A stretch of 64,000 nt of DNA, from assembly GCA_963716725.1 (NCBI GenBank), contig CAVQUB010000015.1:352001-416000 (forward strand), written 5' to 3'. Source of the stretch: an uncultured delta proteobacterium (lineage in GTDB: Bacteria; Myxococcota_A; Polyangia; Polyangiales; Polyangiaceae). Position 1 is the stretch's first letter. The number at the start of each line of letters is the position of its first letter. A model generated the notes under the pieces. It was given only the letters and a program-made list of their open reading frames with translations. It did not search any database and was not told where the DNA came from. Positions 46,380 to 55,036 of this stretch are shown here, piece by piece. Both the position numbers and the translations under genes were made by a program.

Positions 46380-46459
46380 GGGTTGCTCGACGGCCTTTCT
46401 ACCGCTCGGGGCCCGGACGTTCCAGCTTCTCGACGCGAGGGAGCGATGCGCGCAGTCAG

Positions 46460-46531
46460 TGGGCGGGACAGGGCTTGAACCTGCGACATCCGGCTTGTAA
46501 GGCCAGCGCTCTACCGCTGAGCTACCCGCCC
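46460..46531 (-). tRNA. tRNA-Val(TAC)
   Basis: GGGCGGGTAGCTCAGCGGTAGAGC...CT-TAC-AA...GGTTCAAGCC...CCCGCCCA cloverleaf; CCA not encoded. Confidence 0.95.
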
Positions 46532-50883: not shown

Positions 50884-52287
50884 TCAGACGGTGATCACGT
50901 CGCCCCGATCCGGACTGTGCACGTTGCGAAAGCCCTTCTCTCCCAGGAGATCCGAGAGCACGCGCATCGGGACCGGATCGCCGTGCACCAGAATCATGTG
51001 CTCGAGCTCGCCGCGCTTGCGGATCTCGAGCGCGTAGTCCACGAGGTCGCGCTGATCGGCGTGGGCCGAGAAGCCGTTCAGGACGTGCACCTCGGCGTGA
51101 ACGGGCTGCATGGTGCCGAAGATCTTCACCTCCGAGCGTCGCTCGACCAGCCGGCGTCCCAGGGTGTGCGGCGCCTGGTAGCCCACGATCAGCACCGCGT
51201 TCTTCGAGCTGCTGATGCTGCCCTTGAGGTGGTGGAGGATGCGGCCGGCCTCGCACATGCCGCTGGCGCTGATCACGATCGAGGGCTCGCTGGACGAGCT
51301 GACCGCTTTGCTGTCTTCCTTGTCCGAGATGTAGTGCAGGTCGTCGAACTCGAAGGGCGAGTTGCGGCCCTGCAACAGCTCGAGGGCCTCTTCGTCCAGA
51401 CACTCCGGGTGGAGCTTGAACACGTCGGTGATCTTCACCGTCAGGGGTGAGTCGACGTAGATGGGCATGGGCGGCAGCCGCCCGGCTTCCCGCAGCCCTT
51501 TGAAGGCGTAGACGATCTCCTGGGCACGCTCGAGGGCAAACGAGGGAATGACGACCTTTCCGCCGCGGTCGTAGACTTTCTTCACGATCGCCGCCAACTC
51601 GTCGTCCATCTGCTCGATGGGTTTGTGCAGCCGGTCGCCGTAGGTGCTCTCGGTGATCAGCACCTGGGCGCCCTCGGGGACCTCGGGATCCCGAAGGATG
51701 GGCATGCGCCGCCGGCCGAGATCGCCAGTGAACACCAGTCGCTTCTTCTCGCCGCCCTCGTCGATGTCCAGCACGGTGATGGCGCTGCCGAGCACGTGCC
51801 CGGCGTCGAAGAAGGTCAGCATCACGCCGTCGGCGATGGGCAGCTTGCGGTGGTAGGGCATGGCCACCATGCGCGAGAGCACCTCGAGCACGTCGCGCTC
51901 GTCGTAGAGCGGCTCGACGCGCTCCATGTCGCTGTCGCCGCGGTCGATCAGCTTGTTGATGAACTTGGCGTCGCTCTGCTGGATCATCGCCGCGTCGATC
52001 AACATCGCCGCGCACAGATCGCGGGTGGCGCTGGTCGTGTAGATCGGTCCATCGAAGCCCTGCTTGACCAAGGCGGGCAGGGCGCCTGAGTGATCGATGT
52101 GGGCGTGGCTCAACACCACCACGTCGATCTTGGTGGGATCGACGCCGAGGTGTTTGTTCCTCTCGATGGTCTCCCGTCGCGTCCCCTGCCACAGCCCGCA
52201 GTCGAGGAGGATGGTCGCGTGTTTGGTCCGGATCAGGTGCTTCGAACCGGTGACGGTCTTGGCCGCGCCGACGAACTCGATCTCCAT
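50884..52287 (-). CDS. MBL-fold/beta-CASP ribonuclease
   Basis: SHAHIDHSG, AGHVLGS, ESTYGDR, SASGM, FSAHAD. Confidence 0.92.
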   Translation of the reverse strand: MEIEFVGAAKTVTGSKHLIRTKHATILLDCGLWQGTRRETIERNKHLGVDPTKIDVVVLSHAHIDHSGALPALVKQGFDGPIYTTSATRDLCAAMLIDAAMIQQSDAKFINKLIDRGDSDMERVEPLYDERDVLEVLSRMVAMPYHRKLPIADGVMLTFFDAGHVLGSAITVLDIDEGGEKKRLVFTGDLGRRRMPILRDPEVPEGAQVLITESTYGDRLHKPIEQMDDELAAIVKKVYDRGGKVVIPSFALERAQEIVYAFKGLREAGRLPPMPIYVDSPLTVKITDVFKLHPECLDEEALELLQGRNSPFEFDDLHYISDKEDSKAVSSSSEPSIVISASGMCEAGRILHHLKGSISSSKNAVLIVGYQAPHTLGRRLVERRSEVKIFGTMQPVHAEVHVLNGFSAHADQRDLVDYALEIRKRGELEHMILVHGDPVPMRVLSDLLGEKGFRNVHSPDRGDVITV

Positions 52288-52297
52288 GCGACCGAGG

Positions 52298-53053
52298 CTA
52301 GTTGGCCGACGCCGCGGCTACCAGTATGGACTTCAGCGCGGCGAAGTTCTCGGCCTTGCTCAGGTCGTAGGTGGTCAGGTTGAAGGCTGCGATGGGGCGA
52401 TTGTCGGCGTCGAGCACGATCACGTCGCGGTACTCGACGACCCAGTCATTCCAGACGTCCTCAGCCAGCGTGTCTTGCAGCCAGGGCAAGGTACGCCCGG
52501 CCGTGATGATGGAGTTCCCGGATTCGAGCCCGATGCCGTTGACGCCCAGGATCTGGATCTTCTTCTTGGTCGTGGTGCCCGCGAGCTCTTTCTGCATCGT
52601 GTCGAGGTAGCCAAACTGGCTACCGCAATAGCCTCAAGTGGAGTGCCCGAAGTACCAGGCAGACACCTGACCCAGGTAGTCTCGGGGCGAGACCTTCTTC
52701 TTGTACAGGCTCGACGCAGGGTTTTCGTCCACCAGGGAGAAGTCGGGAACGACCGCCGCCACACCACCGTCGCCGCCGTCGGCGCTGTCCGGCGCCGAAT
52801 CGACGCTGGAGTCGGCGACGGCGTCGGAGCCGGAGTCGGCGGGCGCATCGGGCGCATCGGGCGCCGCGTCGCCGCTCGAACCGCCGCCGGAGGGCGTGCC
52901 GCCACTGCCGCTCGTGCCCGCGACGCCGCCTGCGCCCGCCATGCTGGCGAAACCGCCGCCGCCGCTCGAGCTGGCGTTTCGGTCGAGGCGTTCGTCGTGT
53001 CCGCAAGCCATGGCGATGCCGGCAATGAGCAAGAGCGTGGTCGTGAGCTTCAT
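52298..53053 (-). CDS. Selenocysteine-containing redoxin (AhpC/TSA, thioredoxin-fold) lipoprotein, U-x-x-C
   Basis: ORFs 52634-53062 and 52298-52597 are in one frame separated only by TGA at 52634-52636, reading WYFGHST-U-GYC; lipobox AMAC; PDFSL and ILGVN redoxin elements. Confidence 0.82.
52606..52624 (-). promoter_or_regulatory. Candidate bacterial SECIS hairpin
   Basis: GGUAGCC-AGUUU-GGCUACC; apical loop begins 16 nt after UGA with G at loop position 2. Confidence 0.7.
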
Positions 53054-53058
53054 CGTCT

Positions 53059-53598
53059 TCAATCCGGTCCGTAGTCCACGCAGCCGTCGCCGTCACCGCC
53101 GGCGCCGTTGACCTGGCAGCCCGATCCCTGGGGCACGGGGCAAGCGATCTCGGGGCAGGCGACGCCCAGGTCGCAGCCCTTGGCGGTCCACTCGGCCTTC
53201 AGCGATTTGAGCTCCTGAAGCGGCGTGGTGTTGGTGGGATTGACGTAGGTGCTGCAGGGGCACGAAAGCTCGGTGTCGATGAGCTCGGTGCACTGGATGG
53301 CGTTGATCATCGCGTTGCACCCCTTGGCCTGGGTGAGATAGGCCGCGTACTTCGCGTCGAGCTCGGCGCATCCGGTGCCGCCAGTCGCGCCGGTGCCGGT
53401 GCCGCCAGTCGCGCCGGTGCCGGTGCCGCCAGTCGCGCCGGTGCCAGTGCCGCCAGTCGCGCCGGTGCCGGTGCCTCCGGTGCCTCCGGACGTGCTGCCT
53501 CCCGTTGCGGAGCCACCGGTGCCTCCGGTGCCGTCTTTCTCGGACTCGCCCCCGCAGGCGACGGCCAAGGCCAGGGTTGCCAGGAAGCGAAGTCTCAC
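53059..53598 (-). CDS. Gly/Thr-linker Cys-rich lipoprotein
   Basis: GTG start, lipobox AVAC, TGATGGTG repeats, Cys-rich domain. Confidence 0.72.
   Translation of the reverse strand: MRLRFLATLALAVACGGESEKDGTGGTGGSATGGSTSGGTGGTGTGATGGTGTGATGGTGTGATGGTGTGATGGTGCAELDAKYAAYLTQAKGCNAMINAIQCTELIDTELSCPCSTYVNPTNTTPLQELKSLKAEWTAKGCDLGVACPEIACPVPQGSGCQVNGAGGDGDGCVDYGPD
53372..53467 (-). repeat. Coding tandem repeat, 24 bp x4 (TGATGGTG peptide)
   Basis: CCGGTGCCGCCAGTCGCGCCGGTG four times on + strand, one mismatch. Confidence 0.85.
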
Positions 53599-53694
53599 GA
53601 ACCCATCATAGCTCGGGCCCGAGCAGCTTTCCTGCGGGATTTTTCCTGTTGATCGCAGGGGGGCCTGTGGTAAACACCGCGGGCTTACCGCTTC

Positions 53695-53770
<76 letters not shown>

Positions 53771-54325: not shown

Positions 54326-54694
54326 GTGGCAAGCATCGACGACCTTCTGGACGAGATGCGAAGCAACCCCGGTGGGGTTCGGTTTGCCGACGCTTGCAAG
54401 GTAGTGACGAGCTATTTCGGCGAACCGAGGCAGGGCGGAACGAGCCACAAGGTCTGGAAGATGCATTGGGCAGGCGACCCTCGAGTCAACATGCAGCGCG
54501 CCGAATCTGGCAAAGCCAAAGCATACCAAGTTCGCCAAGCCGTCCAGGCCATCGACAGGCTGATTGCTGATCGTGCAGCCAGAGCCGCCCAGGTAGACGA
54601 ACACGATGAGAGGAACTTCGAAACGAAGCAGACCCAAGCGAGAAGAACCAAGGCGAAGGCCAAGACCAGAAGTACCAAGAAACGCCGGAGATAG
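54326..54694 (+). CDS. hicA: HicA-like toxin
   Basis: NPGGVRFAD...FGEPRQGGTSH...WAGDPRVN...KAKAYQVRQ. Confidence 0.82.
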   Translation: MASIDDLLDEMRSNPGGVRFADACKVVTSYFGEPRQGGTSHKVWKMHWAGDPRVNMQRAESGKAKAYQVRQAVQAIDRLIADRAARAAQVDEHDERNFETKQTQARRTKAKAKTRSTKKRRR

Positions 54695-54697
54695 GCC

Positions 54698-55036
54698 ATG
54701 TCCAAGAAAGTGCCTTTGAGCAAGAAATACACGTACCGCGTGGTGTGGTCCGAGGAAGACTCCGAGTTCGTTGGACTCTGCGGCGAGTTTCCAAGTCTGA
54801 GCTGGCTCGCAGCGTCTCCCGATGCTGCACTGAAAGGGATCATGAAGATTGTGGCAGATGTCGTGGCCGAAATGGCGGCGAGCGATGAGATGCCGCCGGA
54901 ACCCATCGCCACGCGTAACTACAGCGGCGAGTTCAAGCTTCGGGTCCCGCCGCTGTTGCACCGTGCCCTCGTGATGGAGGCCGCCGAAAACAACGTCTCT
55001 CTCAACCGGCTCGTGAACGCGAAGCTAGCAACGTGA
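54698..55036 (+). CDS. hicB: HicB antitoxin
   Basis: YTYRVVWSEED...EFPSLSW...YSGEFKLRVPPLLH...SLNR (RHH). Confidence 0.88.
   Translation: MSKKVPLSKKYTYRVVWSEEDSEFVGLCGEFPSLSWLAASPDAALKGIMKIVADVVAEMAASDEMPPEPIATRNYSGEFKLRVPPLLHRALVMEAAENNVSLNRLVNAKLAT

Follow-up and report, generated by a model that had tools for sequence, protein, structure and literature searches.

Could a bacterial gene that seems to end at its own active site be read past its stop codon? This question is raised by a locus on the minus strand of a 64,000-nucleotide stretch of DNA from an uncultured member of the Polyangiaceae (assembly GCA_963716725.1, contig CAVQUB010000015.1, positions 352,001 to 416,000), which is called the window here and is numbered from its first letter. 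At positions 52298 to 53053, one reading frame is interrupted by one TGA with a potential RNA hairpin downstream of it, and the original prediction was that of a hidden exported selenoprotein, in which the TGA encodes selenocysteine (Sec). Based on the observed frame, family, fold, conserved TGA, covarying hairpin and Sec machinery, the gene is a genuine selenoprotein gene, an ordinary member of the family NF053656 that has already been curated in NCBIfam, and the apparent stop almost certainly encodes the active-site selenocysteine of a thioredoxin-like redox protein that is exported and membrane-anchored. The reading of the TGA and the hairpin as the marks of a selenoprotein gene is supported by the comparisons below, and NF053656 identity, Sec decoding and extracytoplasmic location, taken together, appear very probable; the substrate lies outside this estimate.

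The reading frame and its family

The gene runs from an ATG at 53053 to a TAG at 52300-52298 and comprises 251 codons when TGA is read as U (Table 1). Read-through translation of the minus strand bore out the claim that a single frame is broken by a single TGA at the first position of a CxxC motif: the sole internal in-frame TGA is codon 140, in the context ...QVSAWYFGHST-U-GYCGSQFGYLDTMQ..., that is, within the motif WYFGHST-U-GYC. No other letter was found in this codon in contigs (not raw reads) from three separate studies (X1, X4 and X9), of which X1 is possibly the source sample. The only contig from an RNA library, X19 (152 nt), spans 52254-52403, downstream of the UGA, and is uninformative on transcription or read-through.

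The read-through protein matches NF053656 (redoxin_TUGYCR, "TUGYCR motif thioredoxin fold (seleno)protein") with 221.2 bits against a cut-off of 100, and the match covers the whole profile (1-146 of 146, residues 102-247), unbroken across the TGA. One gene of this family is present in the source genome. The motif here is T-U-G-Y-C-G, and its sixth residue varies among R, S and G across the members of NF053656, covarying with the 3' arm of the hairpin. The gene is not "hidden", as had been supposed, since NCBIfam already names a selenoprotein family for it. No significant Pfam family was found for the read-through protein, including AhpC-TSA and Redoxin, neither of which matched at E <= 1. SCO1/SenC was the only thioredoxin-fold Pfam family to appear, at E = 0.12, far below the threshold. 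One database relative, P0003, bears a precomputed PF00578 label.

Conservation of the Sec codon

To locate further members, the first two motif patterns gave 14 and 23 sites, and a profile search of read-through open reading frames (ORFs) was used instead. At 37 loci of related genomes, the Sec column was TGA in 37 of the 38 domains and TGC in the other (L066). At 80 loci from named genomes, 82 of 85 domains had TGA, none had Cys and three were degenerate, being tandem paralogues that lack both redox residues, while 80 metagenome loci all had TGA (80/80). Homologs had been expected to carry TGA or Cys at this column, and both were found, with TGC in L066 and Cys in the database proteins P0002-P0004. 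Among 41 related genomes, nine of nine above-cut-off matches have exactly one TGA; in a 401-genome sample of the phylum, 50 genomes have an above-cut-off family match, and among the 64 above-cut-off matches listed, 59 have exactly one TGA and five have none. As many as 20 of 37 family genes also end in TGA as their true stop, so that a single mRNA would use TGA for Sec next to the hairpin and, about 110 codons on, as a stop.

The carriers include Polyangiaceae metagenome-assembled genomes (MAGs; nearest at 83% identity), Nannocystis exedens DSM 71, N. punicea FL3 and N. pusilla Na p29, as well as MAGs labelled Eisenbacteria, Gemmatimonadota, Planctomycetota/Pirellulaceae, Krumholzibacteriota, Latescibacterota and Fibrobacteraceae; these labels are as in the records, and some of those of the MAGs look doubtful. 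In three Planctomycetota-labelled MAGs (L104, L120 and L132), an upstream tandem copy lacks both redox residues (...GDATSIYARDQFG...) and the downstream copy keeps the TGA and the hairpin.

The database records reflect how such genes are called. The prediction that standard gene callers would split the gene proved right, as 20 of 29 database relatives, the window's own product included, are N-terminal stubs of 138-159 amino acids (aa) ending at the TGA; seven others are full-length and two are partial. At the Sec column, the seven full-length entries have Cys in three cases (P0002-P0004) and Trp in four (P0005, P0006, P0007 and P0009). Trp at this position had been named in advance as an observation that would speak against Sec, and four entries do show it, but all 80 metagenomic DNA relatives of P0005 have TGA there. 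The closest of them (67-71% identity, 43-49% GC, TAA stops) read ...WYFGHST-TGA-... and carry the family hairpin. Because all 80 relatives have TGA at the column, the database "W" is best read as a TGA that the gene caller translated as Trp. Another entry, P0008, is an artefact ORF between the TGA codons of two tandem selenoprotein genes, starting in the C-terminal half of one and ending in ...YFGHST.

The SECIS hairpin

Bacterial Sec codons are accompanied by a selenocysteine insertion sequence (SECIS). The candidate element here consists of a 5' arm GGUAGCC (52624-52618), a loop AGUUU (52617-52613) and a 3' arm GGCUACC (52612-52606), which ViennaRNA folds as a hairpin, and the UGA-to-loop distance is 16 nt, made up of 9 spacer bases and 7 stem bases. 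According to PMC13188914, the bacterial SECIS model has a loop of 3-9 nt, an upper stem of 4-16 bp and a UGA-to-loop distance of 16-37 nt, with G as the first or second loop base in the pattern N1-G-[G/U]-N-N2. Checked by hand, the A-G-U-U-U loop, the 7-bp stem and the distance of 16 nt satisfy all of these published constraints, in agreement with the earlier claim that the geometry fits the model. An Rfam scan gave no SECIS or other credible match, only two chance matches at E 0.8 and 4.1. Over the 40 nt from the UGA, the folding energy of -14.7 kcal/mol (z = -2.70) was reached in 2 of 200 shuffles. Single-sequence thermodynamics is only moderate, and it is the comparative evidence that carries the case.

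For the covariation, 36 TGA sites were aligned without gaps; L066, a Cys form, was excluded, and so was the distant paralogue L031, which has another hairpin register. Changes on both sides were observed at five of the seven stem pairs (14 cells), and the covariation score was reached by none of 500 shuffles. Cells are paired in the stem in 86.9% of cases, versus 15-51% with the 3' partner slid. The stem had been described as a perfect 7-bp one: seven pairs do form here, but the outermost forms in only 7 of the 36 sequences, and the conserved stem is therefore 6 bp. All six core pairs form in 76 of the 82 TGA domains of the named-genome set. Several of the compensatory changes alter the amino acids, as in GS..GY, SG..GH, RN..GY, RG..GR and AGT..GAC (Gly to Asp), which shows that selection acts on the RNA pairing itself.

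As controls, the real TGA stop of the upstream gene has no hairpin (z = -0.19), and the Cys form L066 has lost it (z = -0.53). In the distant Sec paralogue L031, another strong hairpin is displaced downstream by 9 nt (z = -2.95). L031 (G034:C58) is a relative scoring 68 bits with the sequence ...LLSGW-U-GFC..., its own lipobox and the SECIS thus shifted; on the opposite strand beside it are ORFs with cytochrome c and rhodanese domains, and with 4Fe-4S domains.

Selenium machinery in the genome

All four genes whose presence had been proposed as a check, selA, selB, selC and selD, were found in the source genome. The matches of selA (467 bits) and selB (281 bits) are above the curated cut-offs, as are those of tRNA-Sec (selC, 70 bits), which adjoins selB, and of selD (302 bits; G000:C6:227368-228291, locus L010). 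The selD gene has one in-frame TGA, so selenophosphate synthetase would itself be a selenoprotein here. The same-genus genomes G001 and G002 each carry selA and the family gene. In the phylum sample, selA (at E <= 1e-60, cross-tabulated by eye) occurs in 47 of 47 genomes with the TGA form versus 247 of 401 overall. Among the genomes with stop-free copies only, G153 is not among the selA holders, and G221 and G092 have selA.

Fold and comparison with known redox proteins

The AlphaFold2 model of the 154-residue domain, built from an alignment of 41 sequences, has a predicted local distance difference test score (pLDDT) of 97 and a predicted template modelling score (pTM) of 0.92. Foldseek ranked ResA first (template modelling score, TM, 0.81 on the target), followed by DsbE-like, TlpA-like and pneumococcal lipoprotein thioredoxins. 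Against representative structures, VIA-align gave Z 17.4 for DsbE 3gl3 (root-mean-square deviation 2.1, 135 aligned), 17.1 for ResA 2f9s, 16.0 for Etrx2, 15.3 for CcmG, 14.3 for TlpA, 13.4-14.5 for SCO structures (ScoI 14.5) and 14-15.7 for peroxiredoxins (4eo3 15.7, Bcp1 15.3, AhpE 14.9). The modelled fold thus belongs to the extracytoplasmic TlpA/ResA class, and peroxiredoxins are the next closest.

Like ResA, TlpA and CcmG (DsbE), the protein combines a predicted membrane tether with a dithiol-type motif at the N-terminus of helix 1, an N-terminal beta-hairpin extension and a central insertion. Unlike them, it has Sec for the first Cys, T-U-G-Y-C rather than W-C-x-x-C, and Arg for the cis-Pro, and its sequence similarity to the class is marginal (E about 0.002), with no Pfam Redoxin or AhpC-TSA match. 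The pneumococcal proteins Etrx1 and Etrx2 (PDB 4hqs, 4hqz, 2yp6; Z 16.0, Foldseek rank 10) are likewise lipid-anchored extracytoplasmic TlpA-like thioredoxins; they differ in being Cys-based, in their Gram-positive host and in keeping the usual active-site architecture. Etrx1 and Etrx2 are linked to methionine sulfoxide reductase.

Published UxxC selenoproteins in Table 1 of PMC13188914 include a "Prx-like thiol:disulfide oxidoreductase" (PF00578) and a "Redoxin family protein" (PF08534) and, under cd02966, "thiol-disulfide isomerase-like" and "UGC-containing TlpA disulfide reductase". These families share first-position Sec in a TlpA/Prx-like fold with the present one and were predicted by Cys/Sec pairing together with SECIS. 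In contrast to them, the present protein falls below those Pfam models, belongs to a separate curated model and has Arg for cis-Pro. Neither NF053656 nor a UGYC motif is listed in Table 1 of this May 2026 review. A full-text search for "TUGYCR" found no paper on the family, which cannot on that basis be called unpublished, and a literature search for selenoproteins in Myxococcota gave unrelated papers only, judged from the titles listed.

With peroxiredoxins, the protein shares the Arg at the cis-Pro position (by alignment, not coordinates) and a close fold, but it lacks PxxxTxxC (F-G-H-S-T-U-G-Y-C is found instead), and its reactive residue is the first, not the second, in the xxC pair. A glutathione peroxidase (GPx)-like reading was rejected: GPx7 matched no more than the N-terminal half, at E about 0.01, and GPx structures scored lower, at Z 12.4-12.6. 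The conserved Asn after beta-2 is also present in ResA and therefore gives no specific support for GPx.

An arginine in place of cis-Pro

The Y-R-D of the family aligns with the L-P-T of ResA (LPTTF) and with the F-P-H of the Bacteroides TlpA-like protein 2lrn (FPHII) in two independent profile alignments, which are weak (E about 0.002); the Arg is thus placed by alignment and model secondary structure, not by coordinates. Its position is the N-terminus of model strand 113-117. In the family, R112 is at least 90% conserved and D113 is invariant. According to PMC2757866, cytochrome maturation proteins and thioredoxins retain the cis-Pro, an Arg at this position in peroxiredoxins lowers the pKa of the peroxidatic Cys, and, per work cited there, the cis-Pro may prevent metal binding to CxxC. 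Because of this substitution, peroxidase-type and metal-binding alternatives are kept for the chemistry of the protein. As far as we could find, neither the family's near-total Sec dependence across several phyla nor its Arg for cis-Pro seems to have been described in print.

Export, lipidation and linker

The protein begins with MKLTTTLLLIAGIAMAC, followed by a Gly-, Ser-, Asp- and Ala-rich linker of about 85 residues, whose length and composition vary among orthologs. The original prediction of a 251-aa Sec-containing lipoprotein with an AMAC lipobox and a long linker holds for the frame, the linker and the redox domain, whereas AMAC is atypical as a lipobox ([LVI][ASTVI][GAS]C). The same-genus orthologs have the canonical lipoboxes LGAAC or LAAAC. 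Across the family, most members have a lipoprotein signal, a strict lipobox heuristic being positive at 73 of 119 sites. Inspected by eye, 22 heuristic-negatives comprised 12 with a lipobox-like Cys, nine with an N-terminal ...LE.R.LL... and one unclear. Dockerin domains are present in two Cys-form relatives. Together, the lipobox-type signals and the dockerin relatives support an extracytoplasmic location of the family, and export and lipidation of this gene's product are predicted with good confidence.

The members with ...LE.R.LL... are L089, L091, L108, L111, L112, L115, L126, L129 and L137, eight of the nine being labelled as Planctomycetota lineages. A similar N-terminal motif occurs in secreted planctomycete proteins.

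Gene neighbourhood

The features of the locus are listed in Table 1.

Table 1. Features of the selenoprotein locus and its flanking genes, in window positions.
Feature	Position	Strand	Basis
Whole selenoprotein gene, 251 aa and TAG stop	52298..53053	-	One frame, single UGA read through; NF053656 match
Putative signal peptide with lipobox-like end (MKLTTTLLLIAGIAMA-C17)	53003..53053	-	Read from sequence
Low-complexity Gly/Ser/Asp/Ala linker, residues 18-101, from predicted lipid anchor to domain	52751..53002	-	Sequence
Thioredoxin-fold domain, residues 102-247, TlpA/ResA/DsbE-like, U140-G-Y-C143	52313..52750	-	Profile, model, Foldseek, VIA-align
Arg-Asp, domain residues R112-D113 (Y-R-D motif), at the cis-Pro-Thr position of ResA/TlpA	52715..52720	-	Hidden Markov model (HMM) alignments
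Sec codon UGA, residue 140	52634..52636	-	TGA at this column in nearly all family domains; aligns with Cys in P0002-P0004 and L066
SECIS hairpin, 7-bp stem (6-bp conserved core), loop AGUUU; also codes G-S-Q-F-G-Y	52606..52624	-	Fold, covariation, model constraints
Upstream ORF, putative lipoprotein rich in Cys, without known family	53059..53733	-	No Pfam/NCBIfam match; same genus only
Downstream gene, beta-CASP metallo-beta-lactamase-fold nuclease	50884..52287	-	Profile matches; starts 11 nt past the selenoprotein stop

The TGA stop of the upstream ORF precedes the ATG of the selenoprotein gene by 5 nt. Its product (...LATLALAVACGG...) has a linker of Gly/Thr repeats and, at the C-terminus, a 10-Cys domain about 100 residues long, and its true start is probably internal, because the listed start overlaps a tRNA-Asp gene. 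This Cys-rich gene was found upstream in just six of 37 loci, none of them outside the genus, and the beta-CASP gene is kept downstream only in six same-genus loci. For the nuclease, the model "type VII CRISPR-associated Cas14" gives 405 bits (cut-off 800) and that of aCPSF1 gives 312 bits (cut-off 580); being below both cut-offs, it would be a relative of these models, not a member.

For the neighbour scan, 72 of 86 ORFs filtered by GC content at third codon positions (GC3) were compared with Pfam. Most of the 14 left out were picked by eye as pieces of the family gene or as ORFs antisense to and overlapping it; one, L028:3-683, the counterpart of a scanned L027 ORF, was omitted inadvertently. 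Two non-recurring neighbours of family members are further redox proteins of the thioredoxin fold: an iodothyronine-deiodinase-like protein (PF00837) at L064:1836-3236 (+), and a protein with two DsbA domains at L042:1961-3430 (-). Elsewhere in the window, tRNA-Asp(GTC) lies at 53695-53769 (+), just upstream of the two-lipoprotein gene pair, and tRNA-Val(TAC) at 46459-46531 (-). At 54326-55036 (+), a 122-aa ORF without family match is followed by a HicB-family antitoxin-like ORF (PF05534, E = 1.9e-13), and the pair may be of the HicAB type.

Weighing the readings

Several points weigh against the gene being an exported selenoprotein of the TlpA/ResA type. Sec insertion, export and activity are at this stage computational predictions. 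The source genome is a bin of 84% completeness and 3.9% contamination, with its Sec genes on contigs other than that of the window. The locus sets from related and from named genomes, both drawn from one species collection, overlap, and these relatives are not independent. The distance of 16 nt is the lower limit of the UGA-to-loop range in PMC13188914, and a fold of 61 nt gives z = -1.05, matched by 29 of 200 shuffles, which alone is not significant in GC-rich DNA. The lipobox I-A-M-A-C17 departs from the canonical L-[AS]-[GA]-C, being atypical at -2 and -3. Among the 72 scanned ORFs, no neighbour recurs beyond the genus by Pfam and none points to a substrate; therefore, no claim is made that a neighbour binds or cooperates with the protein. 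Lastly, the cis-Pro at the start of beta-3, which defines the TlpA/ResA/CcmG reductases, is replaced by Arg, and this weakens the "classical disulfide reductase" part of the reading.

Could the TGA then be decoded otherwise? Were it a true stop, the locus would hold a pseudogene or two genes, a 139-aa lipoprotein stub and a 99-aa ORF. The stub is indeed listed in public gene calls, and TGA is an ordinary stop elsewhere in the genome, e.g., in the upstream gene; yet the family profile aligns unbroken across the TGA, the fold would be cut at its active site, TGA stands in frame in 199 of 203 domains (from overlapping sets) with a covarying hairpin, and the TGA forms occur only in genomes with selA (47/47 sampled), which leaves a true stop very improbable. 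The other possibility, that UGA is read as Trp or another standard residue through reassignment or a leaky stop, could appeal to the W of P0005, P0006, P0007 and P0009. We regard it as scarcely credible: the 80 metagenomic relatives of P0005 all have TGA with the family hairpin, the stop-free forms carry Cys rather than Trp, and genes of the window as well as 20 of 37 family genes end in TGA, so that TGA is not generally reassigned.

With Sec at position 140, the question becomes what the protein does. In the proposed mechanism, SelB with Sec-tRNA(Sec) would bind the hairpin, which starts 9 nt past the UGA, and Sec would be inserted at residue 140. The preprotein would be exported and its Cys17 probably lipid-modified, and the TlpA/ResA/DsbE-type domain would be held at the periplasmic face of the membrane by the flexible linker of about 85 residues. 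Within U140-x-x-C143, located at the N-terminus of helix 1, Sec140 would attack and Cys143 resolve, with formation of a selenenylsulfide, and the reduced state would be restored by a DsbD/CcdA-type membrane protein. The source genome encodes such a protein at another locus (DsbD_TM, 163 bits), which indicates availability only. The chance that the protein with Sec140 works as an envelope reductant is about even.

The same selenoprotein might instead be an envelope selenol peroxidase or small-oxidant scavenger, in which the Arg would activate the selenolate and Cys143 resolve the selenenic acid. R112, which is so highly conserved, aligns with the cis-Pro of ResA and 2lrn, where peroxiredoxins carry the pKa-lowering Arg (PMC2757866), and the Z scores of peroxiredoxins lie no more than about 2 units below those of the best fold matches. 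The near-obligate use of Sec also fits a reaction of this kind. Sec resists over-oxidation. The absence of PxxxTxxC and of any Pfam AhpC-TSA or Redoxin match at E <= 1 speaks against a peroxidase, as does the fact that reductases are the best fold and sequence matches, and the Arg is placed from HMM alignments at E about 0.002 and model secondary structure; we hold this alternative to be possible but rather unlikely. As for an SCO-like metal or metalloid binder or chaperone, acting through Sec140, Cys143 and the nearly invariant His137, it agrees with the appearance of SCO1/SenC at E = 0.12, with the Z of 13.4-14.5 for SCO structures, with the cis-Pro reported to preclude metal binding to CxxC (PMC2757866) and with the His of G-H-[AS]-T-U, which is at least 90% conserved. 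The SCO motif, however, is CxxxC with a distal His, not UxxC, the SCO1/SenC score is far below the threshold, and no copper or cytochrome oxidase genes are conserved near the family loci, so such a role seems improbable.

Significance

Public catalogues hold this gene and most of its relatives as stubs of about 140 aa or with Trp at the active site, and annotation of metagenome-assembled genomes should make use of the curated NF053656 model. Sec forms of the family greatly outnumber Cys forms in the samples searched. Nearly all selenoproteins have Cys homologs, according to PMC13188914, and the near-exclusive Sec of NF053656 contrasts with this general rule. As a speculative extension, which we consider doubtful, NF053656 may represent a distinct class of membrane-tethered extracytoplasmic selenol enzymes acting on peroxides or another small oxidant, with a peroxiredoxin-type Arg on a TlpA scaffold and near-obligate Sec in Myxococcota, Planctomycetota, Gemmatimonadota, Eisenbacteria and other phyla. 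If true, this class would be a periplasmic counterpart of glutathione peroxidase or peroxiredoxin. Since cultured carriers exist among the Nannocystis strains, the function and the role of the Arg are directly testable.

The family offers a clear example of an envelope selenoprotein whose SECIS lies within the coding sequence of the active-site helix, so that RNA pairing and protein sequence co-evolve. What remains of interest in it is the near-exclusive use of Sec, the overlap of SECIS and active site, and the substitution of Arg for cis-Pro.

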